Source: a virus
IMG/VR virus record: IMGVR_UViG_3300047160_035982
Coordinates: 13 to 64,012 of that record
Direction: 5' to 3' (one strand)
Length of the DNA: 64,000 nucleotides
Shown: piece by piece, positions 47,355 to 63,503 of the stretch
Layout of the letters: the number at the start of each line of letters is the position of its first letter
How positions within the stretch are numbered: position 1 is the first letter of the stretch
Program-made: the position numbers and the translations under genes
The notes under the pieces: model-generated
Databases searched by the model: none
What the model saw: the letters and a program-made list of their open reading frames with translations, nothing else
What the model was told of the DNA's origin: nothing

Positions 47355-47412
47355 CTCGAAATCAGGCGTACGGGTAACCGTACCGTGGGTTCGAATCCCA
47401 CCCCTTCCGCCA
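47355..47412 (+). pseudogene. 3' half of tRNA-Ser(CGA): prophage attR and satellite attL
   Basis: CTCGAAA loop, TCAGG, long variable arm CGTACGGGTAACCGTACC, T-arm GTGGG-TTCGAAT-CCCAC, CCCTTCCG-CCA; no acceptor 5' strand or D-arm upstream. Confidence 0.85.
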
Positions 47413-47464
47413 GTCGTTGGAGGTGAACGACTTACGACGAATCACTCGATGAAAAGCCACTCGC

Positions 47465-47485
47465 TACATAACAGGATACATAACA
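47465..47485 (+). promoter_or_regulatory. Putative integrase arm-type sites (left)
   Basis: TACATAACA twice, 12 nt apart; mirrored by TACAGAAC twice, 12 nt apart, at 63381-63400. Confidence 0.55.
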
Positions 47486-47949
47486 AGAATCCTGGAAAGC
47501 GTCTGAACTAACTTTCGAACGGTCAGGAAAAGAGACGGGCAGGTCGGGGAAAACATAACAAAAACCCGAGCCTGCCGCGTCAGCACACGCACACAATAAC
47601 GATACGACTCGAGACAGTAACACAGTCGAATTCTGCCTCTGGGTCAAAAACAAACGCGCTTAGGATCGTCCCAGGTGCGTTTTGATAGAGCGAGCGCTAT
47701 GTCGCTATTGCCCGAAAAGCTCGCATCAGCAGACACGAAAGAAACGCGCCTCGGATACGCACATGCACGGATTGTTTCGCCCTCAAGCGAGCTTGAGACA
47801 CACTATGCTGCTGAAACAATCAGAAACAGCTCGCCCGGCAAAACCTGCAAATACGCACCGAGGCGCTCGCTCGTAATGTAACACGAAAAAGCGTTCACTG
47901 CACAAAGTCCTATCGACGAGGGACTTATCCAGCGTTATTTTGAGCGATC

Positions 47950-49101
47950 ATGCACGACCGATATTCCGATACGCTCGACCACCCGAGGACTCTGCTGCCG
48001 ACGACTCAACTGCCCGATTTCAGCCGTAATTTCGCAGAGCTCGAGAAGCGTTGTAAACGCCCCTATTCGATCCTCAAGGTTGTCCGCGCCCTTTCGGACA
48101 AGCCGTCGCGCTTAGAAGGTTTCGAGGCTGAAGTCGACCAAGAGCTGAAGTCGTTGAACCCACGGCGCAGCGTAGATGGAATATTGATCCCGCTCGAGGC
48201 ATTAGCAGTATCGCGCCGTGACTTGACGACAGGCGTGCTGCCAGTGATCCAAACGACAATTTCACCAGATGAGCCTATCCCGTTTCTGCGGGTGAAATCT
48301 GTCTGCGCCCGTTGCGGAGCGACGCTGCTCGACGGGTTGACTGGCGGCAATATTTCACTGCCTAGAGCTTATGCGACTGCAGGTGCTGGGTGGTACGGCG
48401 AGGTCGGTCCGGTCCCGAGCGCTGACCAGTCTCTCGATAACATTACACTTTCGCCGAAACTGATCGCTGGCTCGACGATCGTCTCGAATCAATTACTCGC
48501 GCAAAGCTCGCTCGATATCGAGAGATTTGTTACCCGCGATATCAGCGACGCAATCGCGGTCGCGGTCGACCAGGCTGCGCTCTACGGCGCAGGCTCGGCG
48601 ACGGTGCCAAAGGGGATCATGAGCTACGCGGCAAACGGCGCAGGCAACTACAGCTACGGGCTGCGATCCGCTAGTCAGTCTTTTGGCGGAGCGGCAACTT
48701 GGGCTGCTGTCTTGAGCTTCGAAAAAACGCTCGAAGACGGGCGAATCCAGAACGATGGCACTTTCACCTTTGTTTCGACATCAGCAACGCGCACAAAATG
48801 GCAGCAAATCGCCAAGGTCGCGACTTACCCCGAGTTTCTATGGCAACAGCGCGACGACGAGTTGGACGGTCGCGTAAACGGCCGGCGCGCAGTTTCGAGC
48901 GCGCAAATCAGCGGCGACATCGTGCTCTGCGGAAAATTCTCTGAAATGATTCTTGCGAACTGGTTAGGAGTCGAACTTTTAGTGAACACGTACAGCCGCG
49001 CGATCAACGCTGAGACCGTGATCCTTGCCACGATGCTGTGCGACGTCGGGATTAGATATCCATTAGCGTTCTGCGCATCACTGGACTCAGGGGCTCAGTA
49101 A
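47950..49101 (+). CDS. HK97-fold major capsid protein (satellite)
   Basis: GATLLDGLTG.NISLPR, WYGE, ITLSPKLIAG...SNQLLAQSSLDIE, AVDQAALYG. Confidence 0.88.
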   Translation: MHDRYSDTLDHPRTLLPTTQLPDFSRNFAELEKRCKRPYSILKVVRALSDKPSRLEGFEAEVDQELKSLNPRRSVDGILIPLEALAVSRRDLTTGVLPVIQTTISPDEPIPFLRVKSVCARCGATLLDGLTGGNISLPRAYATAGAGWYGEVGPVPSADQSLDNITLSPKLIAGSTIVSNQLLAQSSLDIERFVTRDISDAIAVAVDQAALYGAGSATVPKGIMSYAANGAGNYSYGLRSASQSFGGAATWAAVLSFEKTLEDGRIQNDGTFTFVSTSATRTKWQQIAKVATYPEFLWQQRDDELDGRVNGRRAVSSAQISGDIVLCGKFSEMILANWLGVELLVNTYSRAINAETVILATMLCDVGIRYPLAFCASLDSGAQ

Positions 49102-49108
49102 GATCTTA

Positions 49109-49240
49109 GGAAAAACGAAAAGGCCAGCTTTTACACTGACCTTTTCTCCATGCATTGCCTCGCCAGACCGCGCCCAGCCATACCACGCCAAAGCGAGCCT
49201 TGCCGTGACGTCTTCAATATCGACTCGTTTGAATCACGCT
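49109..49240 (-). ncRNA. Orphan (NN-GGY)10 pentamer tract with flanking hairpins (putative guide D)
   Basis: Ten RCC-NN pentamers at 49157-49206; hairpin 49117-49146 whose loop CCAGCTTTTACACTGA resembles 58021-58037. Confidence 0.75.
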
Positions 49241-49414
49241 TAAAGCAAAAAAGAAGCCCAGGCATTGGCACTCGCCAAGCTGGGCCTCGGACGTGACTCG
49301 TCTCAATTAGAGACATACTGGCGCTTGACCGTGAGAGAAGGCGCATGTCATCATTGCGTCTTCTCATGAACGTGACCCACCTCAGAGCTGCCCTCAGAGC
49401 CGCTGCAACGAGAG

Positions 49415-50260
49415 ATGGTCACGCCAAACGGCGAAGGTAACCAGCAGCATTTCGACAACGCACGCCTCGAGGCAGTTATCGCTCGCTTTCAGCGCAATGG
49501 CGATGCGTCGAGTTTGAACGAAATCGTTCAACTGAGTCAGCAACGCGCATTGACGCTGATAAGATTCAACGGCACGACCTCTTACGGCACAGAGAGCGAG
49601 CTGCTCAGCGATATTAACTACAAACTGCTGCGCTCAGTTAGGAAGTTCGACCCGTCGAAAGGTAGCGCGTTTACGTTTATCTCGGCCGTGATCACGAGCA
49701 CGCTTAAAACGTCAGTCACGGTCACGCGCAAGAATTGGCTGCGAAACTGCGAACTCAGCGACGAACTAGTGAACTCGCTGCACACGAACGAAATCGATCA
49801 CTCGACTGCAGACGATCTCACGCATCGCATCAAGAGCGAAGCGAAAACAATGTTGACTGATCAGATCGAGATCGAGGCGCAACGCTGGTTTGTTGAGAGT
49901 TTTTGTCAGGAAGGATTCGCTTATCGCCGACATCATTGCAGCGACGCATGCATGGGCGTTTTCCAATTGAGTCATGCGCGGTCGAGAGAATTGTACGATT
50001 TGACGATGCTCGAAGTTAGACGGGCGTTGTACGACGACGTCAAGCGACGTCAGCAGATCGCCCCTGGCAGATTGCTCGGCACGCGCAGCGCTTGGGTCAC
50101 GCAGTATGCCGCGCTCTTGAGCGCTGACGAATTCACGAAGTTTTATTTTCTGATGAAAAATCTTGCGCCGTACTTGCTGCTGATGATCGCCGACCCGTCA
50201 AAGACCAATAATCATCGCAGAGATAGGAATCAACAATCGGTCGCCAAACGCTCGAATTGA
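49415..50260 (+). CDS. Sigma-70 region 2-like protein
   Basis: ELLSDINYKLLRSVRKFDPSKGSAFTFISAVI. Confidence 0.6.
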   Translation: MVTPNGEGNQQHFDNARLEAVIARFQRNGDASSLNEIVQLSQQRALTLIRFNGTTSYGTESELLSDINYKLLRSVRKFDPSKGSAFTFISAVITSTLKTSVTVTRKNWLRNCELSDELVNSLHTNEIDHSTADDLTHRIKSEAKTMLTDQIEIEAQRWFVESFCQEGFAYRRHHCSDACMGVFQLSHARSRELYDLTMLEVRRALYDDVKRRQQIAPGRLLGTRSAWVTQYAALLSADEFTKFYFLMKNLAPYLLLMIADPSKTNNHRRDRNQQSVAKRSN

Positions 50261-50392
50261 TCTTGTACGGCGATCCTGCCGCAACGCCACTGTTTCAATA
50301 AGTTGCGCTCGACCGCGTATAATTTCGAAGTTTTCGCGCGAAAACTTTATCTTTGCTTTGAACGATTTTGATCATCGTCACTCTTGGAGAGA

Positions 50393-50986
50393 TTATTTTT
50401 TGAACGATTTGCATACCTCTTCGGTCGACTGAACTTTCGCGCGTCTCTTCGGCTTGCTCTTGCGCACGTTCTTTATCGCGACTGCGTCCTCGGCCGCTTC
50501 CCCGTTGCCGTTCTTCTCACTATTGCGCCTGAGCCGCGTCTGACTGCGAGCAACGTTATCGAGAATAATTGGAATGCTGCTCAATTCTCGCAACAAATCA
50601 TCCTGCTCGGAGCGATCCAGTTTCGAAACCCGTATCCGAGACACGACCGCGTCAGCCAACGCTGCGAATGCTGACGAGAGCGCCGAGCGATTCAAGACGC
50701 TCGCTTCGACGATGCTGTTTTCAAGCTCAAGCTTTCGCCGAATCTCGCGCTGAGTCCCGAGCTTCTCGACGTGCATCGAGCCAAAGATTGCTTGGCAGAT
50801 CTGCTCGGTCGTATAGCAAAACGCCGCATCAGGCTCAGCGCCGTCTTTGACGAGATTCTTGCGCAACGTATGTGGAGCTAGCTTGAATTCGATTGCTGCG
50901 CGATCGACCGACCATTTCAGGGGATCTGGTGGGACGTTGCATCGCACAGCATGGCGCATTCGAAGATGGTCGTCAGATTCACACAC
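50393..50986 (-). CDS. Terminase small subunit-like protein (Nu1/DUF1441-like)
   Basis: WSVDRAAIEF..APHTLRK wHTH-like region, YTTEQICQAIFG, RRKLELEN coiled coil; start uncertain. Confidence 0.6.
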   Translation of the reverse strand: MCESDDHLRMRHAVRCNVPPDPLKWSVDRAAIEFKLAPHTLRKNLVKDGAEPDAAFCYTTEQICQAIFGSMHVEKLGTQREIRRKLELENSIVEASVLNRSALSSAFAALADAVVSRIRVSKLDRSEQDDLLRELSSIPIILDNVARSQTRLRRNSEKNGNGEAAEDAVAIKNVRKSKPKRRAKVQSTEEVCKSFKK

Positions 50987-51188
50987 TATCGCAACTGAAA
51001 ACGTCTAGAGCGAAGTCGATCAGCCGCTCGGTGCTTGCGCTACGATCGACTGAGACGCGTCCTGATCGGCGAGACGTCTGATCCACCAGCTTTACGCACT
51101 CGCTCATCTGCCAACGCAAAGATAAAATGTTGGGTCGCGTCCAATATTGGCTTTATTAATTCAAGAGAGTGACGTATGCATAAGTAGA

Positions 51189-51602
51189 ATGAAAAACTTT
51201 TCAGACCATTGGCTCCATAACCACGACGTTGCACATAAGCATAAAGTCAACCTTGATTTTAACTGTCCTCATTGCGGGCAGACTGTCTATGAGACCTTTT
51301 TCCCGATAGACGAATACAATCCTGAGTCCTTTTCTTATTACTTCTGTGGCTGTGCTAACATCAGCTTTTCTGAACCGCAGAAAATGACCAAAAAACGCTG
51401 GCTGGAACTATACCCACAATCACGCGAAGAGATGGAGCCCCTCGACTTCAACTGCCCCGTTTGCAACCAGCCTGTTTACGGAACCATGATGTGGGCGGAC
51501 CTTTATCATTTCGATTGCGGCTGCGGCTACATCAACACCGAAAACGCGATCATGACTCCTGAACGATGGGCCAAAACGACTAAACATAAACTCGAAGACT
51601 AA
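51189..51602 (+). CDS. Protein with two tandem Cys-rich (zinc-ribbon-like) repeats
   Basis: DFNCPHCGQTVY...CGC...MTKKRW and DFNCPVCNQPVY...CGC...MTPERW. Confidence 0.6.
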   Translation: MKNFSDHWLHNHDVAHKHKVNLDFNCPHCGQTVYETFFPIDEYNPESFSYYFCGCANISFSEPQKMTKKRWLELYPQSREEMEPLDFNCPVCNQPVYGTMMWADLYHFDCGCGYINTENAIMTPERWAKTTKHKLED

Positions 51603-51834
51603 AGACCGAAACGCGCTTTCGGCGCGTCAGTGCGTGATGCGCACTCTGACGATGGTCGTCAGCCAACTCTCAACACAGAAAAACGAACATGATAATCTTG
51701 CTCTATTTACTGCTGCTCGCGCTCGCAGTGAGAGCTTTGCGCTCGGCCAGCACGCCGATAGGCTGCCTGAGCTGGGTCGTGCTGTTCGCGATCATCTTTA
51801 TGTTTCTAAGCACACGATTTTTTCATCCAGCACT

Positions 51835-52008
51835 ATGAAAGGCGGACCACGCAAGGGAGCAGGTCGACCACGCGGAGCGGACAAGCGGACAGTCACGATC
51901 AAGCTCGCAGTCGAGGTGATCGATCTGCTTCACGAGCTGCCAAAAGGCTCGATGTCTGCGTTCGTCGAGCGAGCGTTGCTGCGCGAATTTAAGCGAACGA
52001 TAAAGTAA
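51835..52008 (+). CDS. Small ribbon-helix-helix-like DNA-binding protein
   Basis: GGPRKGAGRP...VTIKLAVEVIDLL...MSAFVERAL. Confidence 0.55.
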   Translation: MKGGPRKGAGRPRGADKRTVTIKLAVEVIDLLHELPKGSMSAFVERALLREFKRTIK

Positions 52009-52831
52009 ACCACGAGCTCCGGCGTTCTCCGCAAATCCGAGTGATGTTGATTCAACTTCACTTAACTTGACGCATCGAAGGTCTCTCTGCCCTCGCTCGC
52101 CTGCTTGCGAGTACATCGACGCGCGCAGCGCAGCGAGCACCTCCCCAGAATTTCATATAATCGAGTAAAATAGGTCGCAATCCATTCCATATCAGCTATT
52201 TACACTTAAAGCATTGTACGAATTTTTGGCGGTCAGCCCATCGCCGCGATCGGAGCGCTCGCCGTGCCTACCCCCTTGGAGAGGACCCAGGATTCTACGG
52301 GGCGAAAGAAAATCTCGAAATTGCTATAGCTCTCGCATCACGCGAGGGTGCGTCACTGGTGTGATCACGCTCAAAGCAATCTCGATCGGTCGCGCTCACT
52401 ATGCGCGCCAACGTGCGCATCTCGACGCCACAAGCGTTTTGATTGCTGAGCAGTATGGACACAGTGCAAAGAAAATCTGCCGCGCTCTGGCGTGATCTGC
52501 ATGTCGATGTCGGGCGACATATCTCTGAGGTCGTGATCATCGATTACAGGATTGCGAGATCGCGAACATTCAGATCCTGAAAAACGTGCTGCTCGCTTGC
52601 TTGCTGACAGTGGAGTTGGAACGTCGCAACTGTTGGCACGACATGTAAGAAAATCGAAGGCGAGATCAGCTCATCGTACATATTTTATGTACGATGATCA
52701 ATCGCAGCATCTCTTAATCGAACACGGATCTAGAGGGGTTAAGAACCGTAGGAATCATGTCGTCGCGAACGACGTTATCGAATCTTCGATCAGCGAGAGA
52801 ATTCGACAAGTTCACTGCCAGCCCCTCATCG

Positions 52832-53146
52832 TTAATCAAGATAGGGCGTCAGCAGACGCTCTTTCTCTAAAGCTTCGAACCATTGCTGGATTTCCGAGCA
52901 ATTACTCGCGAGGAATATCGCTCTTTGCAGTTTGATGCCCCACAGTCGTTTCTGTTCCGAGTCATCCACCCATTCAAATGTGCTGCATTTGTCAGGGTCG
53001 TAAATGTACTGCTCTATGGTATTGAGGACTTCGTCATCATAATCCGACTCTATCTTGGACTCGTCGATATAGCCGCCCTTAATCAATTCGCTAGCAAGTT
53101 CATCTTTCGTCATGCGCCTATACATCAATCGGCTGCGCGCAAACAT
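52832..53146 (-). CDS. Hypothetical acidic protein
   Basis: 104-aa ORF. Confidence 0.35.
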   Translation of the reverse strand: MFARSRLMYRRMTKDELASELIKGGYIDESKIESDYDDEVLNTIEQYIYDPDKCSTFEWVDDSEQKRLWGIKLQRAIFLASNCSEIQQWFEALEKERLLTPYLD

Positions 53147-53392
53147 CCAGTAGAATCTTCGATCAGAGCGCGAAAAGCTTATTTCAAATGCAAACTATCA
53201 AATCGTTTGTCGCCGTCGACGAGGTGAATGCTTGCTGAGATGCGTCGCTGTCTGTTTTCCTGACGGCGCGTCTCGCGTTTTTGACGGCGTTCCTGCTGAC
53301 GTTCTCGCCGTTCAAGTTCCTTGAATCTGTAAGGTCGAGCCATAGTATAACACTGCGTAGAGCTTGACTATTTCGCGTGTGAGACGTTTTGA

Positions 53393-53707
53393 TTGTTAAG
53401 AGCTCCTAATTATATCGTCTCTGCAGTTGTGAAAAGATTAGAGTTTCCTTTTACGCGCAATGGGTTCACGCACGAGCTGATCGAGCGCAACGACATGATC
53501 TGTCTCGTGAAACGCTCGAAACGTGAGCATTCGCATTATGAGGTCGTGCGGCTGCGCATTGAAAAAGACAAAGAACGCTTTGGGAAGTTCTATCCTGAAC
53601 ACGAGAGGTATCCGAGCGACGAAGACTGGGGCTCATATGGATTCACGTATCCTGCGGCTGATCTTGCCGAGGCTCAGAAGCGGTTAGGAGAAATTGCTGA
53701 CCATTAG
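53393..53707 (+). CDS. Hypothetical phage protein
   Basis: YEVV...ERYPSDEDWGSYGFTY. Confidence 0.5.
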   Translation: MLRAPNYIVSAVVKRLEFPFTRNGFTHELIERNDMICLVKRSKREHSHYEVVRLRIEKDKERFGKFYPEHERYPSDEDWGSYGFTYPAADLAEAQKRLGEIADH

Positions 53708-53731
53708 CGATTGTTGTAACCTGTTGATTCA

Positions 53732-54016
53732 ATGACTCCAGCTCAATCGGCGCACAGTAAAATAAGATTCCTCATCAAGACCGGACGCCTCGAACGAAAA
53801 CCATGTGTGAAGTGTGGAAAACCTCATGGGCATGCCCACCATCGTGACTATTCAAAACCCTACGAGATCGAATGGCTTTGCGCTTCTTGTCACAGAAAAT
53901 GGCACAACGCTCAACTAACTGAAGAGCGACACGAAGCACTCAACGCAAAATGTAGATCTAAGAAGCGTCCAAAACCTGAACGACCTGAAGTTCTGAATTT
54001 GTGGGCTCTGGGGTGA
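53732..54016 (+). CDS. HNH-like zinc-binding protein
   Basis: CVKCG...HAHHRDYSKP...WLCASCHRKWH. Confidence 0.7.
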   Translation: MTPAQSAHSKIRFLIKTGRLERKPCVKCGKPHGHAHHRDYSKPYEIEWLCASCHRKWHNAQLTEERHEALNAKCRSKKRPKPERPEVLNLWALG

Positions 54017-54326
54017 ATGTTTGCATTATGCAATCATTACACGCAAGAACACGTAAAAACGACAAGCGTACTCGCTTTGTAAGTCATTGATAATCAGCGC
54101 AGTTTCTATGGGCTATAACCGATAGATTTTCCTTTAACGGGAACGGTTTTTCAGGTGAATCAAACCGCGCCCAAATCGAATCCTAGCGCGATTACCGAGC
54201 ATACCGAAGCAAGCAATGGCATGACTGCGACCAGTCGCGTCGATCGTTTGGGCCGAATCCTGACGCGATTACAGGTGGGCCGATTTTCAATGGATTTTAG
54301 ACGTCAGAGGCTGTCTTTTCTTCATG

Positions 54327-54671
54327 TCAGTTGATTCCCGCTTTACTGACGTAGACAACTGATTTCGCAAGCTTGGCGTTTGCAACGTCGCGACCGAATT
54401 TCGCCTCGACTTTAAAATCGTCACCTATCTTTCTGATCGTGAAAACCCAATCTTTTTCAATAACTAGATTAAACGCCTCGGTGTAAATGGCGCGCGCCGC
54501 AGAATCATCAAGGGATTCCATCTTTGAGCGGCAGCACAAATCGACAGCTTCAGCGATGACGTTTGATGTTCGATCGTCAACGGCGCTTGAATCACCGGCA
54601 GATAATTCAATAATCAGCTGGCTTAAAATAATCGTGATCCGAGCGCGATCTGTTTCAGATAATCGTTTCAT
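54327..54671 (-). CDS. Hypothetical protein
   Basis: 114-aa ORF downstream of the origin. Confidence 0.4.
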   Translation of the reverse strand: MKRLSETDRARITIILSQLIIELSAGDSSAVDDRTSNVIAEAVDLCCRSKMESLDDSAARAIYTEAFNLVIEKDWVFTIRKIGDDFKVEAKFGRDVANAKLAKSVVYVSKAGIN

Positions 54672-54726
54672 AGGTACTTAGGTTTTCTCATAAGGTTGCG
54701 TGCCAGCATCAGTCTGCATTGCGTTT

Positions 54727-54920
54727 AGTCTGTACTGACGTTTAGTCCGTACTAGTACAGACTGGCTTTAGTGACGACTGTTCTTTAGTTTAGTCTGTAC
54801 TACGAATACTAACTAGATTCCCCCGTAAGGGGGATCTAGTATTCGCAGTATAGACTGAACTCATGTCGTCACGTACACGCACAGTCAGCAGTCAGTACAG
54901 ACTGGATGTCAGTACAGACT
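54727..54920. repeat. Iteron array with central palindrome, putative satellite origin
   Basis: Seven AGTCTGTACT-like decamers (54727, 54744, 54792 forward; 54754, 54847, 54894, 54911 reverse) around ACTAGATTCCCC-CGTAA-GGGGGATCTAGT. Confidence 0.75.
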
Positions 54921-54948
54921 GGCAAGCTGGAAATAAGAAAAAGAGCGC

Positions 54949-56205
54949 TCACTCGTCGTCGGCAGGTTCGCGCACAGTCGGCAGGTGATAGAGAGCGAAC
55001 GCGCCACCTTCAGGGTTTTTCGCTTCGGACCGAAGCAGCCGCCTCGCAAAAGTCATTTCTTTTATAGCGGCGAATGTCCAGTCGCGACCTTTATTGAGTT
55101 CTTTTTTCACAAGTTCACACAGACTTTCTCGCGAATATTTCTGCGTTGGTTTTATGAGTTTCAGGATTCGTTCGTACGGGACAAATTTCGATTGCCCAGC
55201 GCCCCCTTCTTGCTTGCCGATGCGTTTCTCACGCTTTTCATTCGCTGCGTCTGCTTTGTCTGATTCGCAAAGCAGCCACAGCCAATCGCCGTTGTCATCG
55301 ACTGAGCGGCGCAGATGAATACGGTCTTCGGTCCAGCCGAGTTCGTGAAACCCTTTACCGCCGCAGAGACAGAACACGTCATCGTCGACGGGCAGAAGCA
55401 GAATGTTTCCACGGCAAGCGTTCGTGATCGACGCCATCCCAGCGCCCGCGTACTGAATCTCGTAGATCGTCTGGTCGTTAGGATTCTTCCCACTCGGTTT
55501 CGGCGGGTGATGAATAACAAGACCGCCGCAGTTGAGCCTGCGCAGAACCGACGGGAACCGCGCACGGATGAAATCGTTAAGGCTCGGCTCGTCGTAAACG
55601 CCCTTGCTGAGGAACGAGGTCAGCGGGTTGACACAAATAACGTCGGGTTTGAAAACTGCAGCGTGACGCCCTATTTCAGCGATTGCCGCAGAGTCTTGAA
55701 CACCCTGCAGCGTCACGACAGCCGTGTTGGCATCGACCATCGCCCGTTGCTCAGCAGTGAGATTAAGCCGACGGCAGAGATGCCCGATGCGGATCAGCTT
55801 GTTCTCTGAATCTTCAGCTTGAAAGAAGATAGTCCGCAACGGCCGCGGGATCTTGATCGAGAAACACATCTCGCCCATCGCCCAATACACTGATAATTGA
55901 GCTGCGAGCGTACTTTTGCCGGCGTAGCTTGCGCCGACGAGAACAACGAAATTTTCTGGTTCGAGAAACCCGCTGCCCATCAGGAACTTTGTGACATCGA
56001 CTTCAAGGTCCGAGTAATAGATCCACGACCGCATCGGCAACAGCGGCTTTTCATGTTGCTGCTCGCCGTTCGCGAACGGATCTGGTTCTTCAGTTTCACG
56101 CTCGGGCTCTTGCGCGTAGTAAGGGTTACCTTGTCGTGACGACGACTGAGCAGATGACTTTGATTTGGATTCGCATTCATGAAATTCATGGGCTGATGGC
56201 TCCAT
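54949..56205 (-). CDS. RepA-like (AAA_25) helicase
   Basis: VGASYAGKST Walker A, FFQAED, VIHHPPKP, YAGAG; AAGGAGG RBS before ATG 56205. Confidence 0.82.
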   Translation of the reverse strand: MEPSAHEFHECESKSKSSAQSSSRQGNPYYAQEPERETEEPDPFANGEQQHEKPLLPMRSWIYYSDLEVDVTKFLMGSGFLEPENFVVLVGASYAGKSTLAAQLSVYWAMGEMCFSIKIPRPLRTIFFQAEDSENKLIRIGHLCRRLNLTAEQRAMVDANTAVVTLQGVQDSAAIAEIGRHAAVFKPDVICVNPLTSFLSKGVYDEPSLNDFIRARFPSVLRRLNCGGLVIHHPPKPSGKNPNDQTIYEIQYAGAGMASITNACRGNILLLPVDDDVFCLCGGKGFHELGWTEDRIHLRRSVDDNGDWLWLLCESDKADAANEKREKRIGKQEGGAGQSKFVPYERILKLIKPTQKYSRESLCELVKKELNKGRDWTFAAIKEMTFARRLLRSEAKNPEGGAFALYHLPTVREPADDE

Positions 56206-57235
56206 CTGCTTCCTCCTTGATAGGCTCGGGTCGAAGCGCCTCGTCAGGCGCGACATAGTAGATCGTCTGACGGTTACCGTTGTCGCGGATACCGCCAGGC
56301 AGTCTGACGTATTGGTTAAGGTCAAAAACTTGTGAATCAGCGCCAAGGCGCACAGCTCGGCACATGAAATTACGTGATTGTTTTTCAGTCTTTTCAAAGA
56401 CACGCCACCACGCATGCAGACTTTTCCCGCCGCTTGAGACGACGAGGACAAGCGGCATCAACTTTGCATTTGCAAGCTCGACGATCGCAGCCGCGCAAGC
56501 GTCAGCGACCGAGACACCTGACTGCTCCCATGCTGTGATGATTGGCTTCCATGCGGTCTCGGTCTTGCCATCACGCGCATACGGGGCGATGTCGAACTCG
56601 GTCACGAGATAGCATCTGCGGCCTACACTGGCCTTGGCATGTTCGCTTTTCTTCCCTTCTTGCGTCAGCCCGTAAACTGAGAGCATTGGGTTCGGGAGGA
56701 TAAATTGATACTTTGCTAAATGACCACGCCAGACCTCACGTCGGCGCGTAGCAAATTTGTAAGCAAATTTCGCAACGCATAGCAGCGGGTTCGCAGGGAA
56801 AAGGATGTCGATAGTCTGCTCGCAATGATCATCCGCGTCCTCGAAACGCAGCGGCGAACGTTCCCAGAGGTCGTATAACCCTGGCCCGTGTTTTCCTAAC
56901 AGATAGACGTGACCTGTATCAGGCGCAGGCCAAGCAGGTTCAGGCGATGCAGCTCTGATGATCGCACTCGCTGGACTCTGCGCATTGATCGGGGCAGTCT
57001 TCTTTTCAGCAGCAGCGACTGCGCCCTTGATTTCGCGCTGTGTGACAGTGCGCCCAACACGGCGCGTCGTTTGATAGAGCATCTCGATCTTAGCCGCTGT
57101 CGAGTACCCCGCCTCGTGCAGCAGACACGCGGTCACGAACAGCCATTGGTGCACGCCCGAGCCAGCTGTTGGAGGAGTCGCCAACGCATTCAGAGCGCGA
57201 GCTGAAACCTTATCAATAGCTGAATCAGCGCTCAT
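56186..57235 (-). CDS. RepB-like/AEP-type primase
   Basis: LVTEFD, VSSGGKSLHAWW, YVRLPGGIR; coupled to the helicase. Confidence 0.7.
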   Translation of the reverse strand: MSADSAIDKVSARALNALATPPTAGSGVHQWLFVTACLLHEAGYSTAAKIEMLYQTTRRVGRTVTQREIKGAVAAAEKKTAPINAQSPASAIIRAASPEPAWPAPDTGHVYLLGKHGPGLYDLWERSPLRFEDADDHCEQTIDILFPANPLLCVAKFAYKFATRRREVWRGHLAKYQFILPNPMLSVYGLTQEGKKSEHAKASVGRRCYLVTEFDIAPYARDGKTETAWKPIITAWEQSGVSVADACAAAIVELANAKLMPLVLVVSSGGKSLHAWWRVFEKTEKQSRNFMCRAVRLGADSQVFDLNQYVRLPGGIRDNGNRQTIYYVAPDEALRPEPIKEEADGAISP

Positions 57236-57633
57236 TTTCGCAGTCCTTGATTGAGCACAATCTCCATCGCTCGGCGCAGATTGAAGCTCAGGTTGTCGCA
57301 CTCTTCCAACGCCCATCGTATATAGTTAGGCGGCAGCTCGCCGACGCTTCGACCTTTATACTTACCGAAATTGACGAGGTAACCCCTAGCGGCTTCGAGT
57401 TGTCTGAGCGCAAAAGTTCTCTGCGCGAACGCAGCGACGACCTGCTCTGCACTCACGCCGCGTTGGCGCCATGACCGCACAAGCATAACTGCTGCATTGT
57501 CGACCTCGCCTTGATGCGCCGCAGAATTGAGACCTAGCGTTAGCAATTTTTGCTCAACGTCGGTGAACACGGGCCCGTCGGGCGAGACAACTTCTCGCTT
57601 GAAAATCAGATGGTCTTCGACAAAACTGAACAT
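57232..57633 (-). CDS. DUF3820/QSregVF_b-like protein (homolog of 36682-37014)
   Basis: FGKYKGRSVGELPPNYIRW; N-terminus also similar. Confidence 0.7.
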   Translation of the reverse strand: MFSFVEDHLIFKREVVSPDGPVFTDVEQKLLTLGLNSAAHQGEVDNAAVMLVRSWRQRGVSAEQVVAAFAQRTFALRQLEAARGYLVNFGKYKGRSVGELPPNYIRWALEECDNLSFNLRRAMEIVLNQGLRK

Positions 57634-57748
57634 GTTATTGTGTTGTTAAAAAACTGAACTCTCGATTTACCTCTCGACGTTTAGTGCCTTTTGCCCGCCC
57701 TGGCTCGTTACCTCGGCGGGCTCTTTTTTGTGATTATCCTCCGTGCGG

Positions 57749-57940
57749 TTATTTCGGTTTGATTTCGAGCCGCTCCAACGCAGCAACGACCTTCTCGGGG
57801 TTATATAAAAACGTGCGGCGATCGACTTTTACGGCGGGGATCAACCCTGTACGCCGCAGCGTTCTGATCTTGCGCGGCGTGAGTGGGACAACTGATCGAA
57901 GCGATTCTTCGTCAACCAGAGAACATAAAGCGTTCAGCAT
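57749..57940 (-). CDS. Excisionase-like HTH protein
   Basis: IRTLRRTGLIPAVKVDRRTFLYNPEKVVAAL. Confidence 0.6.
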   Translation of the reverse strand: MLNALCSLVDEESLRSVVPLTPRKIRTLRRTGLIPAVKVDRRTFLYNPEKVVAALERLEIKPK

Positions 57941-58007
57941 ATGTCATGAAATACTTCACGAGATCGTTGAGACTCGTCAGCGACGCGTACGCACTTGTTA
58001 GGACCCC

Positions 58008-58373
58008 AGAATGCCGCCGACCAGCTTGTTAAACTGATCGGCGGACTTCCATGCCAACGCCTTGCCTTGCCCGACCACCCCAGGCCTCACCCGGCCTCAC
58101 CTTGCCCGGAATGCCGCTGTCTGCTGAACAAGCCAAACAGCGGACTTCCATGCCATGCCTCGCCTTACCGGGCCGGACCCCGCCGCGCCACACCTGGCCG
58201 CGCCAAGCCGTACACTGCCCTGCCTTGCCGCGGAATGCCGCCCACTCTTTGCGAATGAGCGGACTTCCATGCTTTGCCTTGCCCGACCACGCCGCGCCAA
58301 AACGCGCCAAGCCCAACCTGGGCGTGCCTCGCCGGGGAATGCTGCCGACTCTTCCTTTAATCGGCAGATTTCC
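58008..58373 (-). ncRNA. Array of three (NN-GGY)n pentamer tracts separated by four conserved hairpins (putative guide RNA array)
   Basis: Tracts A 58053-58107, B 58152-58231 (16 pentamers), C 58271-58335 (13 pentamers); hairpins 58008-58050, 58108-58149, 58232-58268, 58336-58373. Confidence 0.88.
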
Positions 58374-58384
58374 ACAGCCTGACT

Positions 58385-59095
58385 TCACGCGTTCACTAAC
58401 TTTTGACGTTTCATCCATTGAGTTAAAGCCTGCTCAAGTTTCAGTAATGCCTCGACTGTGTCGTCGTCATCAGCCTCGATGTAATCGTCAGTAAGCAGGA
58501 TTGTTAGATCATCAGCCAACTTAATAACCTTTTGTCCACTGAGCGAGCGTTGGCGTTCGTCGATTGCTTTCACTTCTTTTTTGATCCACTGCTCATCCTT
58601 GCTCTGCATCTTGATCTGCAGCGGTTCAACTAGAGGCGCTTTTAAAACAACAGGTTTGACTGCGTCCGAGTCACTCCACACGCCGCGTTCACTAATAGCT
58701 TTCTCGAATTCAGAAACCGGGATGCGCACGATCTTGGCAATCTCCTCTGAAGAAAACTTCATGCGGGTTAACTGCATCGCTGCACTAAGCTTTTCCTGAT
58801 AGCTGAGGCCGTGACCGTGTGTGGCGTTGTCTTTAACGGCTAAAGGGAACCATTGTGTTTCGAGCTCTTTGGTTACGATTGCAGCGATCCGCGGCAACTT
58901 CCTTCGTCGGTGCGCCTCGTATCGGTGACGGCCTCCGATAATCACATAACGATCATCGCGTTTACCAACGAGAATCGGTGGCAAAACATCGCCTACGCGC
59001 AAGGCATCGAGCAGCGACTCGATGTGTCTCCAACTAACTTGATTGCGCGGATAGATCGTCTCATCAATCAAAATTCGGTCGATGCTGATATACAT
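58385..59095 (-). CDS. ParB/Srx N-terminal domain protein
   Basis: IYPRNQVS...LPPILV...YVIIGGRHRYEAH...NATHGHGLS. Confidence 0.8.
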   Translation of the reverse strand: MYISIDRILIDETIYPRNQVSWRHIESLLDALRVGDVLPPILVGKRDDRYVIIGGRHRYEAHRRRKLPRIAAIVTKELETQWFPLAVKDNATHGHGLSYQEKLSAAMQLTRMKFSSEEIAKIVRIPVSEFEKAISERGVWSDSDAVKPVVLKAPLVEPLQIKMQSKDEQWIKKEVKAIDERQRSLSGQKVIKLADDLTILLTDDYIEADDDDTVEALLKLEQALTQWMKRQKLVNA

Positions 59096-59098
59096 AGG

Positions 59099-59743
59099 TC
59101 AGGCTGCCTTTCTCTTTTTAGATTTCTTTTCTTCAAGAATCGTCGGCTCTGAATCGAAACCGACAATCTCGGGTTCAGGAATAAAAGCTTCTTCGCGCTG
59201 CGGCAACAACTCGAAGCGTTTTAGGTAATACTGCCCAAATGGGCCTTTCTTCTCTGGTCGAAAATCGCAGACGCCATTGAGCACTCCTGCAGTTTTGATT
59301 ATTTGCGGCCCAAATTTCTGCATGATGGGGATCGGAATCCATTCATCGCGGAAGTGCAGCTCAAACGTCACCTCCCACGGCCAGATCTTCGGTCGGCTAT
59401 GTGGCACGCGATTTTTCTGAATGACGACTGAGCGCGTATCGATCTTGTACTCTGTCGTGTTCAACGAAACGAATTCTGGCGTGATCGCGACACAACCGAT
59501 CATCGCTGTCGACATTTTCAACTTGCCGACTTTATAGTTGCCAGCAGCCTTAATGAAAGACCGGTAGAACGCTACCCCAGGAATCGCCAACGAGGATTTG
59601 TCGTCGGTCCAGTATAAGCGCTTTCTTGCTTCCTCAGCTGGATCGTAACTGACTTGCTTAACGCTCGTCTCACTGTTCATCGAGCTGATGTTATTCAATA
59701 AAGCGGGGGTCAACCCGCAAACTGTAATTTTGATTTGTCTCAT
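59099..59743 (-). CDS. RAMP/Cas7-like RRM protein (Vipr-like effector)
   Basis: ITVCGLTPALL (beta1), LAIPGVAFYRSFIKAA (IPG-helix), RPKIWPWEVTFEL, Gly-rich loop AGVLNGVCDFRPEKKGPFGQY. Confidence 0.75.
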   Translation of the reverse strand: MRQIKITVCGLTPALLNNISSMNSETSVKQVSYDPAEEARKRLYWTDDKSSLAIPGVAFYRSFIKAAGNYKVGKLKMSTAMIGCVAITPEFVSLNTTEYKIDTRSVVIQKNRVPHSRPKIWPWEVTFELHFRDEWIPIPIMQKFGPQIIKTAGVLNGVCDFRPEKKGPFGQYYLKRFELLPQREEAFIPEPEIVGFDSEPTILEEKKSKKRKAA

Positions 59744-59768
59744 AGATAATTAACCGCGTTTTGTCAGA

Positions 59769-60527
59769 TTAATTGCTTTTATCCCCGAGTGCTCCCTTCG
59801 CTATCGTGACTCGACTACCAGCCGCATCACCTGCATGGTAAGCGCTCGAGTCGGAGAAAAACTCCTCACGCCGCGCTTTATGCGTAATATTTATGTTTCT
59901 GGCCTCGAATGCCTTCCTAACAATATCCTCTTTCACAACGACAATCGCCCGACAATTATTGTCGGCAGCTTCGTTCTGCGCCGCCTTCATGGTGTAGAGC
60001 CGAGTTGATATTCTCTCGACCATTCCCCGCATGAAATTGGCGCGTGCCGTTCCAGGCGATGAAATTGAGTCCTTGCGGTGTGCATTCCAATACAAGTGCC
60101 ACTCAGTATCCATCGCGTTGCGCAAGATGTCGGTTAGATACGTTGCGACCTGTACATCAGTGGCTAGCCCGAAGTAGACTAACAATACGCCACGATGATC
60201 GTGGAGCCGCTGATACCAGTGGCGTGTGTCAGTGTAATCGGCGATTGCACCCGCGACATGTAAGACCTCATGCGCACGCACTCTGCCTATCGTCATCGCA
60301 TCCGTCTCGCAGACATCCGAAGGTGTTGAGATCGATTCAAGTTCCGAAAGACTCAGACCGTACTTCGTCATTAATTTCGAAGCCAATTCAGCGGCTGCTA
60401 ATGCTTCGCCCTCGGTACAGCCGCGCTCTTTCGTTTTTGCAAGTAACGCTGAGATCTTGTCGAGCAACGCGGCTCGTTTATCGGCAGATTGCCCTTGATC
60501 AGAGCTTCGCGTATCTTTCGTTCGCAT
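59769..60527 (-). CDS. DUF2786-domain protein
   Basis: LLDKISALLAK...EGEALAAAELASKLMTKYGLS. Confidence 0.8.
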   Translation of the reverse strand: MRTKDTRSSDQGQSADKRAALLDKISALLAKTKERGCTEGEALAAAELASKLMTKYGLSLSELESISTPSDVCETDAMTIGRVRAHEVLHVAGAIADYTDTRHWYQRLHDHRGVLLVYFGLATDVQVATYLTDILRNAMDTEWHLYWNAHRKDSISSPGTARANFMRGMVERISTRLYTMKAAQNEAADNNCRAIVVVKEDIVRKAFEARNINITHKARREEFFSDSSAYHAGDAAGSRVTIAKGALGDKSN

Positions 60528-60584
60528 ATTCAGTTGATTAATTCTCGCTCGCGGTTGATTGCAGTCGGCCCGAGCGGTTTGTTG

Positions 60585-61250
60585 TTAATCGTTAGATTCA
60601 AGGACGTCATCTTTAAGGCCCTTGTAGTGGTGGAACAGATGCAGGACCATAGCCGTCGCAAGATAACGGCAGGCTTTAGGATTTTGGTCTTTCTTGATTT
60701 TCTCCCAGCCAAAATAAACAAGTTTGTTGGCCTCGTTTTCCGTGATGCCGTATTTGGCTTGCTCGACTTCTGATTTCACTTGCTTCCGTAAAGGGGGAGT
60801 CGAAGAATCAGGGGGCTTGTTTTCCGGGGGTTTGCCAGTGTCTGGGATTCCTTCTTCGTCGTTACTGGGAATCTCAGATTCAGGGTTCAAACTTGACGCA
60901 GGCGTCAAGTTTGATGGGGCTGTCGAATCTGACTCAAGTTTGCTATTGTGACCCATGATCTCTGCTATGAATCGGGCTTGATGCTCTTGCAGCAGTGGAT
61001 CATCGCGTCGTTTATAGACGCGCATATAACGGGCGATCGTCCGATAACTGAGTTCGGGGATATTCTTTTCGACCCAAGGCATCCATGATCCATGAGGCAG
61101 TCCGTGTTTGACACGGGTCATGATCTCTCCAGCTTCGATCATGCGCTCGATCATGATTTTACCCATGCCGATGAGCTGATGATGAATCGTCTTTATCTGG
61201 TCGGCTTCTTCGCGAAAAAGCGGCTCTGATTGATCCGAAGGCGTTATCAC
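60585..61250 (-). CDS. DUF3102-domain protein
   Basis: MIEAGEIMTRVKHGLPHGSWMPWV...RTIARYM. Confidence 0.75.
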   Translation of the reverse strand: MITPSDQSEPLFREEADQIKTIHHQLIGMGKIMIERMIEAGEIMTRVKHGLPHGSWMPWVEKNIPELSYRTIARYMRVYKRRDDPLLQEHQARFIAEIMGHNSKLESDSTAPSNLTPASSLNPESEIPSNDEEGIPDTGKPPENKPPDSSTPPLRKQVKSEVEQAKYGITENEANKLVYFGWEKIKKDQNPKACRYLATAMVLHLFHHYKGLKDDVLESND

Positions 61251-61489
61251 TTCGACGCCTCCGCAGATTGCGCATAGCGACTGCCGCCGGGTAGAAAGCT
61301 ACGGATATAGGCGTCAAGGCTAGCGAGGTTGACGAGCCAAACGCCCTTCGTTGCCCCGGGTTTCTTGATATGCGAGCCGAGGATGTCACCGCGCACGACA
61401 GCGCGAAAGAGTTCTGGGCGACTTATACCAGAACCCGCAGAGGCGCGGGCAAGTCGATCCCATTCGAGACCGGTTAGTTCCTTTTTCAT
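61247..61489 (-). CDS. AlpA/excisionase-like DNA-binding protein
   Basis: GISRPELFRAV...KGVWLVNLASLDAYI. Confidence 0.6.
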   Translation of the reverse strand: MKKELTGLEWDRLARASAGSGISRPELFRAVVRGDILGSHIKKPGATKGVWLVNLASLDAYIRSFLPGGSRYAQSAEASK

Positions 61490-61613
61490 AGTGGAACTAA
61501 CTGTCGCATGAGAAAATCAGCGGAATAAGTGACCTCGTAAAAAAATTGTATGTCACCCTATCCCGCTATGAATTGGGTGACGTCGCGAGAAAGTTAGGAG
61601 TCACCCTATCAAG

Positions 61614-62213
61614 TCATGTAATCTTCGATCGACGAGTGGCGTTGCGCAGTTTTGACAGCCCAGCTTTTTTGAAGAGACGCGCCCATTCGGATGATGTCTT
61701 TGGAATTCGTAAGCCGGCTTGCTCGAAAATCTCGACTGCTCTCTTGCGCACTTCCTTCTTGAGCGGCCAATCGTTCTCGTCGTCACCTTTGCACAAGTCA
61801 CGAAAAGCAATCATCACGACGCGCACGCCGTGCATGTCAGGTTCTGGGGATTGAGCGAGTCTGACAGTGTCAATCAACGCTCGCAGGATTTCGTCTTCCT
61901 TATAAAACACGGCAGCAAGGATCAGCTCTTTGAAATCTGCAATGAATACGCGGTCATCGCATGACGGATGCGTATTTGTTATTCTGAACCACGGGGCGAA
62001 TTCCGGGTTTTGTTTCGCGTATTGTCGCCACCTTTGTAATTCCTGCCAGATCTCGGTCCGAAAGACGAATTTCGTATCCGTGTATCGTTTGACCGCTTGC
62101 AAAAATTCCCGTGGATAGTTTTTCCCGACATCGGTCATTTGATGTCGCAGTAAGGAGTAACGACCCCAAAGCGACCTCGGCAAATCATGCGAAGAGTATT
62201 CGTCGTCGCTCAC
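61614..62213 (-). CDS. Hypothetical protein
   Basis: 199-aa ORF coupled to the integrase stop. Confidence 0.5.
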   Translation of the reverse strand: MSDDEYSSHDLPRSLWGRYSLLRHQMTDVGKNYPREFLQAVKRYTDTKFVFRTEIWQELQRWRQYAKQNPEFAPWFRITNTHPSCDDRVFIADFKELILAAVFYKEDEILRALIDTVRLAQSPEPDMHGVRVVMIAFRDLCKGDDENDWPLKKEVRKRAVEIFEQAGLRIPKTSSEWARLFKKAGLSKLRNATRRSKIT

Positions 62214-63376
62214 TGTTGCCCCTCCAATTTCGGCAAGCGCGGGATGAGCTGCGTTGCTGCTTTGATCGATTCGAGGTCTTCGTGGATGTAGCGATCGACG
62301 GCACCGCCAGCGGCGTGGTTCGTAACTCTGCGCGTGATCTCGCGAAGCGACGCTTGGTTGAACACGTTACTCGCTGCGGTATGGCGAAAACTGTGAAACG
62401 AGAGCGCTCGCACAGCTCGCCCTTTACCCGTGTTGCCTTGACGCAGCAGACGCTTTTCGATTCCTGCCTTATCGAGCAGCTCGACAAAACATATCGAAAG
62501 ACCGTGTGCGCCCTTAATGCCTTTATTCGCCAAAGTGGGAAACACCGGCGCGTCAGGATCGTCGGGCACGGGGCGACTGCTCAACCAATCGAGAAAGTCA
62601 GGGTGCAGACCGAGACACGCCTTCGCATTTGTCTTTTGCTCGCGGAATGTGACGATCGAGTTCGCGACATCGAGGTTCGACCATTTGAGACTCTTGCAAT
62701 CACCGAGCCGCGCCCCGGTGCCGTACGCGAACAAGATCAGCCCTTGCCAATCCGAGTCGGCGATCGAGAGCAGAGCGGCGATTTGATCTCCCGTGAATGT
62801 CTCTTTCGCAAGCGGCTCGCTCTTTTCGGGCGTTGTCGCCATGACAGGGTTGAAACGAAGTTTGCCGATCTTTCGCGCTTTCTCGAAGGGCGCCGACAGG
62901 TACTTGCGGATCAGTTTGTTGATCGTCGCTGACGATCGCCCTTCTTTACGCAAGAGTCGGACGAACCCTTCGATGTCTGCGGTCGTGATCGATTCGAGCC
63001 GACGCGTTGCCCCGCGTTCACCGAGATAAGCAATGAACTCGTCGACCGCTTGCCCGTAAGCTTCGAACGTCGATGCAGCGATTTGCCCCTCTTTCGAGTC
63101 GAGCCATTCGCGCAACCAGTCCTTTACGCTGACGTATCCGATCGTCGCTGCGCCGATGCGTGCGAGCGTCTCGTTCAGGATTTGCAGAACTCGATCGTGC
63201 GACAACTCGACGTTTACAGCAGCGTCCTCGGCGGCCTGCCACGCTTCGGTGATGATCTTCGCCTTGTTTTTGTCACGAGTTTTGGTTGAACGCCAGACAC
63301 GTCGACCGTCAGCGAGGCGCAGAGCGGCGTACCAGACACCTTTCGGCGAACGCGGATTACGATGAACAGAAGCCAT
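62210..63376 (-). CDS. int: Tyrosine integrase (satellite)
   Basis: TGARLGD (R), SFHSFRHT (HxxR), VTNH, DRYIH (Y); adjacent to attR. Confidence 0.92.
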   Translation of the reverse strand: MASVHRNPRSPKGVWYAALRLADGRRVWRSTKTRDKNKAKIITEAWQAAEDAAVNVELSHDRVLQILNETLARIGAATIGYVSVKDWLREWLDSKEGQIAASTFEAYGQAVDEFIAYLGERGATRRLESITTADIEGFVRLLRKEGRSSATINKLIRKYLSAPFEKARKIGKLRFNPVMATTPEKSEPLAKETFTGDQIAALLSIADSDWQGLILFAYGTGARLGDCKSLKWSNLDVANSIVTFREQKTNAKACLGLHPDFLDWLSSRPVPDDPDAPVFPTLANKGIKGAHGLSICFVELLDKAGIEKRLLRQGNTGKGRAVRALSFHSFRHTAASNVFNQASLREITRRVTNHAAGGAVDRYIHEDLESIKAATQLIPRLPKLEGQQ

Positions 63377-63476
63377 GAACTACAGAACGACATACAGAAC
63401 AAAAACTTTAAATACAGTTTGTTCCAGAACATCCAACTCGCTCGCGGATAGGTACTTACGAGAGAGCAAAAACGTT

Positions 63477-63503
63477 CCGTGGGTTCGAATCCCACCCCTT
63501 CCG
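63477..63503 (+). repeat. attR of the satellite (27-bp tRNA-Ser 3' duplicate)
   Basis: Identical to 47383-47409. Confidence 0.93.

Follow-up and report, generated by a model that had tools for sequence, protein, structure and literature searches.

The pentamer tract located just behind the major capsid gene in the 64,000-nucleotide stretch of viral DNA analysed here (the window) probably belongs, judging from its sequence, to the element's own VIPR system as a vrRNA gene that stands by itself, with a guide that spells the capsid allele of a rival element. VIPR was described in three 2026 preprints. Vipr is a minimal RAMP protein which polymerises on vrRNAs made of GGY and NN bases, with one protomer per repeat; the GGY bases are sequestered, the NN bases pair with double-stranded DNA, every third target base is skipped, and transcription is silenced (bioRxiv 10.64898/2026.04.26.720920). 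The guide part of the orphan unit is as follows.

49157-49206, minus strand: guide part of the orphan vrRNA, ten in-register NN-GGY pentamers (evidence: shuffled sequences, and an orthologous tract with other NN bases in contigs L016 and L017)

From 49206 to 49157, the minus strand reads AC-GGC AA-GGC TC-GCT TT-GGC GT-GGT AT-GGC TG-GGC GC-GGT CT-GGC GA-GGC. The original prediction had counted ten NN-GGY pentamers here; its list of NN dinucleotides was right, but only nine of the ten units conform, the third being TCGCT, with GCT in place of GGY. Degenerate units are frequent in vrRNAs according to the VIPR authors, and the published tracts have 9-16 units (bioRxiv 10.64898/2026.04.26.720920). 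A vrRNA is expected to have at least four tandem 5-nt units of GGY plus NN, and the orphan has ten, including the degenerate one. In 200 dinucleotide-preserving shuffles of the 64-kb window, the best run had a mean of 4.6 and a maximum of 6, and 7/10 was never attained. The window itself contains four in-register clusters of at least 8/10, on the minus strand only, three of them in the main array and the fourth being the orphan. The heptamer GCATGGA (TCCATGC on the plus strand) occurs seven times on the two strands of the 64 kb, and four of these copies form the 3' junctions of the four tracts, in agreement with the earlier claim that the orphan and the main array have this junction in common.

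The orphan unit is located in the 313-bp gap between the capsid gene (47950-49101, plus strand) and the next plus-strand gene (49415-50260). It is antisense to the capsid gene, starts 8 bases past the capsid stop (49101), and is separated from vipr by 9.9 kb and from the main array by 8.8 kb, much as predicted (about 9 kb from the effector, antisense right behind the capsid gene). The 281-aa product of the gene that follows the orphan (49415-50260) had a weak match to Sigma70_r2 (E 2e-4, below the Pfam cutoff). No Rfam family was matched at the orphan or the main array, and PADLOC returned no defence-system match. A CRISPR array or crRNA was considered and rejected, as the repeat-spacer pattern is absent, the period is 5 nt, and contiguous (0-skip) reading gave no target. 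A possible eleventh unit (AA-UGC) was also rejected as guide; it never gave a full match, the capsid codon at that place is an invariant Val, and it was counted as tail. A 250-nt contig from soil run X3 aligned to 49157-49195 through the GGY scaffold only, with other sequence on both sides, and probably represents a further vrRNA locus, carried in the same habitat by an unrelated element.

The effector gene, its accessory gene and the main array are part of the same integrated element as the orphan. These features are listed below.

47376-63503, no strand assigned: integrated element of 16.1 kb, with 34-nt direct repeats and an integrase gene (62210-63376)

58008-58378, minus strand: main vrRNA array, with a leader hairpin and three tracts of 13, 16 and about 10 units, and a hairpin behind each tract

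58385-59095, minus strand: vap-like accessory gene with a ParB_N domain (Pfam ParB_N, 3.7e-07), directly downstream of vipr

59099-59743, minus strand: vipr gene encoding a RAMP protein of 214 aa (profile match to 36pp_D, AF2 model, Foldseek, G-loop)

The 34-nt direct repeats (family D6) at 47376-47409 and 63470-63503 are 94% identical and resemble a tRNA 3' end. They bound 16.1 kb which contain the capsid gene, the orphan, replication genes, the array, vap and vipr, with the integrase at the right end; a single integrated element therefore carries the orphan, the array and vipr, and the idea that guides are dispersed in this element was supported. ARAGORN found an intact tRNA at neither element end. 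Both repeat copies may be fragments left by tandem integration beside the neighbouring prophage.

The protein encoded at 59099-59743, predicted to be a RAMP protein, was confirmed as such by homology and by fold. A profile made from this protein and 15 homologues matched PDB 36pp_D, 'SUSP1 Vipr protein', over nearly its full length (E 5.7e-16), and a single-sequence search against SUSP1 Vipr gave E 0.25 only. No Pfam family was found for the protein. Its AlphaFold (AF2) model had a pLDDT of 81 and gave Foldseek matches to Csm3/Cas7 RAMP proteins (E ~1e-6). The G-loop is G-V-x-D-F-R-P...F-G, with D160-F161-R162 aligned to D177-W178-R179 of SUSP1, the residues which hold G1, G2 and Y3 of the repeat (bioRxiv 10.64898/2026.04.26.720920). 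The identification of this gene as vipr makes the locus a VIPR system as defined in that work; earlier candidates, namely a ParB centromere or iteron and a TRAP-like RNA-binding site, were dropped after the Vipr homology and the VIPR literature came to light. No second vipr was found in the 64-kb window. A vipr-ParB_N pair beside pentamer arrays was also found in two other loci, L001 and L002. In L002 (11321-11786, plus strand), seven pentamer tracts stand back to back behind the gene of a distant Vipr (30% identical), whose neighbour is a weak ParB_N match; the tracts have no hairpins and only GAGGAC/AGGGAC separators, and the locus is adjoined by IS elements and a group II intron. By analogy, this array resembles the 'staggered' array type of the VIPR paper.

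The array units are probably cut from the vipr-vap transcript. The leader of the array (58336-58378), right after the vap stop codon, is a full fourth hairpin of the tail type, and every array guide is thus flanked by hairpins on both sides, unlike the orphan. The third array guide (guide C, 58062-58108, minus strand) has the NN bases CG AA GA CG GA CT GT CG AA AA, and no site above the shuffled-guide null was observed for it in the window or in the other loci examined.

The guide of the orphan was decoded against the window, and the features involved are the following.

47950-49101, plus strand: HK97-type major capsid gene (Pfam Phage_capsid, 1.4e-32; 120 homologues)

48895-48923, minus strand: near-self site in codons 316-325 (SSAQISGDIV) of the element's own capsid gene, with 16/20 NN bases matched and all skips on wobble positions

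The ten NN dinucleotides were read against the two strands of the 64 kb, with the number of skipped bases set to 0, 1, 2 or 3. Only the 1-nt-skip rule performed better than the shuffled-guide null (p ~0.02, in the window); the rules with 0 and 2 skipped bases gave no match, and the 3-nt-skip rule recovered the orphan's own locus only. The best site on either strand was 48923-48895 in the neighbouring capsid gene. Codons 316-325 (of 383) lie in the most conserved part of the capsid protein, and NGR[RK]AVSSA is one of two conserved peptide patterns chosen from its alignment. The homologous capsid site scored higher, 17/20 (85% of NN), in nine soil loci (L003, L005, L007, L012, L014, L034, L037, L043 and L044), and this is the best DNA match scored so far. 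Both these relatives (17/20) and the element itself (16/20), with all skips on wobble positions, reach the 80% match that the VIPR authors use as their threshold for calling a target (bioRxiv 10.64898/2026.04.26.720920).

In the plus sense, the guide is TCx AGx GCx CAx ATx ACx AAx GAx TTx GT, which corresponds to S-S-A-Q-I-T-(K/N)-(D/E)-(F/L)-V. The element's own allele is SSAQISGDIV and the family majority is SSAQITGDIV; the N and F codons, still mismatched at 17/20, co-occur in two metagenomic capsids, P0047 (SSAQITNDFV) and P0032 (SSAQISNDFV). The P0047 allele, for which the protein sequence is the basis, should score 18-20/20. The first Ser codon is TCG in most relatives and AGT in some; it is possibly AGY in P0047, so that the predicted score may be as low as 18/20. 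The apparent target of the orphan guide is a single capsid allele of sibling elements, from which the element's own allele differs at four read positions. Such a guide, with self mismatched, corresponds to the published pattern of wobble-phased targets in essential genes with a lower self than non-self match. Single-protein scans of viral contigs and genome contigs returned no capsid relatives, and no perfect target pattern was found by a pattern scan of viral contigs. L043 and L044 are long contigs with capsid genes that are 72-73% identical and with similar replication modules, and a gene with a TIR domain lies upstream of the capsid gene in L043. As these two contigs have neither vipr nor a pentamer tract, and as the guide scores 17/20 on them, they are plausible targets, or candidate victims.

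The same data bear on self-regulation, in which the guide on its own Vipr would act on the element's own capsid gene 234 bp away, damping or timing late-gene expression, or blocking read-through into downstream genes in lysogeny. The best match in the window is indeed the own capsid gene, at an NN identity of 80%, equal to the published calling threshold; likewise, the site best matched by the L016 orphan (18/22) is at the beginning of the gene next to it, on the same contig, and array guide A (58271-58335) matches the element's own vap gene at 21/26. However, a self regulator would be expected to match perfectly, relatives reach 17/20 where the element itself reaches 16/20, and the two codons still mismatched are fitted by a natural allele. 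Moreover, the published systems have no self matches of 80% or more, and their self scores are lower than their non-self scores. Self-regulation is considered unlikely, and a guide aimed at siblings is the reading which we retain.

An orthologous cassette was found in L016 and L017, two contigs which are identical in this region, which have a capsid C-terminus 80% identical to that of the window, and in which the tract is at the same place on the same strand. The 40-nt 5' flank is ~81% identical between the window and L016 (compared to ~30% at NN positions) and is unique in the window; the tail is ~96% identical, and GGY is kept in 9/11 units. The NN bases, in the tail-anchored comparison, are equal at only 6/20 positions, which is near random, for what amounts to one independent full-sequence orthologue. 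Conservation of flanks, tail and GGY but not of NN is the signature of a programmable guide. The L016/L017 guide was matched, in wobble phase, by the opening codons of the gene that follows the cassette; the score was 18/22 both in L005 and on the contig of origin, and 17/22 in L014, L043 and L044. The genes matched by this guide are homologues of the 281-aa gene at 49415-50260. Contigs from soil runs X2 and X4 share the orphan tail (49110-49159) and then diverge to an L016-type guide, one of them with a changed NN base.

The cassette is absent from L004, L007, L008, L012, L034, L038, L043 and L044. In L007 the T-run of the upstream hairpin directly abuts the bases before the capsid stop, which makes the ~135-nt cassette a clean presence/absence difference. 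Neither the orphan tail nor, in genome contigs, the 5' flank was found by pattern scans.

These comparisons also make it very unlikely that the tract is a guide which no longer works, either a decaying copy of an array unit kept as capsid terminator, or part of a 78-aa minus-strand ORF (49131-49367). One unit is degenerate (TCGCT), the hairpin is 16 nt behind the capsid stop, the ORF spans the tract, and its L016 counterpart is 59% identical. On the other hand, GGY is kept in 9/10 units here and in 9/11 in L016 with NN randomised, a period of 5 and not of 3, and the guide still decodes, in wobble phase, to the right gene family. Read on the minus strand, the hairpin is followed by a T-run, which is not so on the capsid strand, and the ORF crosses the terminator hairpin and has no family match. 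On the period-5 variation between orthologues, a coding reading of this ORF was rejected as unlikely.

The sequences flanking the guide part were examined for signals of transcription and processing. The three flanking features are listed below.

49109-49156, minus strand: orphan tail, with an AAUGC-AUGGA junction, a 12-bp hairpin (49117-49146), a U-run and a terminal UUCC

49207-49246, minus strand: conserved 5' flank and putative promoter region, with a weak TTTAAG-17-GATATT

49247-49285, minus strand: upstream hairpin and T-run, with apical UGGC-GAGU-GCCA, kept in L004, L007, L008, L012, L016/17, L034 and L038

The tract had been described as lying between hairpins, and this was found to be so, with the hairpin at 49117-49146 and its T-run downstream, and a hairpin at 49256-49285 with a T-run at 49247-49255 upstream. 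[quoted passage not shown] In soil runs X2 and X4 this tail is found next to other guides, with a further guide variant in X2. No consensus sigma-70 site was detected by the promoter scan on the minus strand at the orphan. The TTTAAG-17-GATATT sequence would put the start 1-3 nt before the first unit, in the window and L016 alike, and a promoter would lie in the conserved 5' flank, with this sequence as a weak candidate site. The upstream UGGC-GAGU-GCCA hairpin, which had no Rfam match, resembles a terminator at the end of a conserved antisense transcript that comes from the intergenic region between the capsid and sigma-like genes. We propose, from its position, that it might shield the orphan unit from antisense transcription further upstream. 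The same hairpin and T-run are present behind the capsid gene in most relatives, whether the orphan cassette is present or absent, and in two copies in L008. The bracketing of the orphan by two minus-strand terminators, together with a conserved and unique flank, argues for a separate transcription unit of ~100 nt. The published vrRNAs are also ~100 nt (bioRxiv 10.64898/2026.04.26.720920).

The tail itself is of a different kind from the tails in the array. The array-type tail hairpin is GGAA-GU-CCGC...GCGG-CA-UUCC, with 11 pairs, 100% paired, of which 3 are covarying. With a covariance model built on six tails from the window and L001, the array tails scored 51-59 bits, the array leader 30 bits and the orphan tail 6.0 bits (E 7.5). 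The loops have no common sequence, and the match originally predicted between the loop of the downstream hairpin and that of the main array was not confirmed. Both types of tail have the GCAUGGA junction, with a hairpin immediately after it, and end in UUCC, which could pair with GGAG. The L001 array has the junction GCGUGGA (GCGTGGA in DNA) in place of the GCAUGGA of the window, and its system is 52% identical to that of the window. Every tract of this clade closes with the unit (A/G)UGGA. In this unit a purine occupies the place from which the Y pocket of Vipr excludes purines, and may mark the end of the filament. Compared with its own array units and the L001 array, the orphan shares the NNGGY units, the final (A/G)UGGA, the hairpin directly behind and the terminal UUCC, but lacks a 5' hairpin, has a promoter-like flank, and fails the array-tail model. 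As the orphan tail is outside the array tail family, its acceptance by the element's own Vipr is uncertain.

This tail is one reason to consider that the guide might serve a foreign Vipr, of a helper phage or a rival, loading there and redirecting or diluting that system. Published satellite solo vrRNAs act in this way (bioRxiv 10.64898/2026.10.15.759431), and the cassette is a discrete module which is present or absent among relatives. Against this, the element has its own vipr, with no other in the window, the GCAUGGA junction is the same as that of its own array, and the decoded target is the capsid gene of siblings and not a repeated decoy. Furthermore, no array with a AUGGAGAAAAGG-type (orphan-type) tail was found in any locus examined or in viral contigs. 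This alternative is therefore judged improbable, and loading on the element's own Vipr remains the preferred reading.

The original prediction that the orphan is a separately transcribed guide for the same RAMP protein was supported by several lines of indirect evidence: the presence of a Vipr-family protein, the vrRNA grammar and the array-type 3' junction; the reprogrammed cassette in L016/L017 and the wobble-phased capsid site read by the 1-nt-skip rule; and the layout as a unit of its own between terminators, with orphan and vipr in one element. We infer transcription, loading on the element's own Vipr, silencing and self-sparing as the steps of its action. A transcript of ~100 nt would be driven by the conserved 5' flank, start just before the first pentamer and end with the hairpin and U-run of the tail. 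Vipr protomers (59099-59743) would then assemble one per pentamer, holding GGY and exposing the ten NN dinucleotides in the manner seen in the structure of the SUSP1 homologue, and the filament would read double-stranded DNA by the 1-nt-skip code. On the SSAQITNDFV allele, the guide would occupy the capsid gene or late operon of the rival and block transcription, possibly helped by the ParB-like Vap. The own allele, SSAQISGDIV, differs at 4/20 read positions, and the element would probably be spared; this is not assured, as the own site reaches 80%, the target threshold of the VIPR authors. The capsid site (codons 316-325 of 383) is also far from the promoter, whereas the GFP-reprogrammed guides in the VIPR paper were aimed close to the promoter (bioRxiv 10.64898/2026.04.26.720920).

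Guides without adjacent effector genes, aimed at related viruses, are known from orphan or mini CRISPR arrays on viruses. Compared with these, the orphan has no repeat-spacer structure or contiguous pairing, and two bases in five are read. Lone vrRNAs and guide dispersal are already published, and the differences presented by the orphan are ones of detail, with the mechanism unchanged. Solo vrRNAs were reported on F5 satellites and on 346 VIPR-null phages, as were vrRNA-targeting vrRNAs on VIPR-positive phages (bioRxiv 10.64898/2026.10.15.759431). Like the solos of F5 satellites and of VIPR-null SUSP1-family phages, the orphan is a single GGYNN tract with a tail, away from an array and on a mobile element, and it shares with them wobble-phased targets and a self-match below the rival match. 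Those solos are without vipr and vap, borrow a Vipr and have tails close to the SUSP1 tail, whereas the orphan has its own vipr and array in the element and a tail unlike that of the array. Many of the solos target REP decoys, vipr or other vrRNAs, while the orphan targets the capsid gene of siblings. In the strict sense a solo vrRNA is on an element without vipr and vap; here both vipr and a ParB-like vap are present, which makes the orphan a dispersed unit of a VIPR-positive element. A close comparison is vrRNA1 of Escherichia phage SUSP1 (type II; PDB 36pp), also a lone ~100-nt unit apart from a three-unit array. SUSP1 vrRNA1 is bound by the same Vipr as its array, is directly upstream of vipr and has a pseudoknot tail, whereas the orphan is 9.9 kb from vipr, in another gene module, antisense, and with a simple terminator-type hairpin tail. 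The two Vipr proteins are related at the profile level only (E 5.7e-16, against 0.25 by single sequence).

The position of the guide near a mismatched copy of its own target might indicate that lone vrRNA cassettes are kept near a resistant own-target allele, with weapon and immunity moving together, or that guides arise from the neighbouring gene; we regard this as possible but doubtful. Each cassette may be a promoter-guide-terminator module of its own, no more than a few hundred bases away from that allele. The distance from guide to near-self site is 234 bp for the orphan, 264 bp for the L016 orphan, on the other side, and ~500 bp for array guide A (in vap). The chance of the best site in 64 kb falling within 320 bp is ~1%, for the window alone; this adjacency is much less surprising if guides are always aimed at a few conserved late genes. 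The array guides of L001 had no significant near-self site on its 5.4-kb contig, and this locus adds no support for linkage. Linkage between a guide and its own target is not described in the published VIPR preprints, although a lower self than non-self match is. If the idea is true, sibling elements that recombine would pass on weapon and immunity jointly, in the manner of a poison and its antidote.

The orphan unit is a natural case of a VIPR-positive, satellite-like soil element with a guide outside the array, in another gene module and with a terminator-type tail. It suggests that the tail requirements of Vipr are looser than one conserved structure. The allele pair SSAQITNDFV and SSAQISGDIV offers a means to measure VIPR mismatch tolerance and self-sparing, and the orphan widens the picture of VIPR, so far drawn from Enterobacteria and Pseudomonas, to uncultured soil elements.
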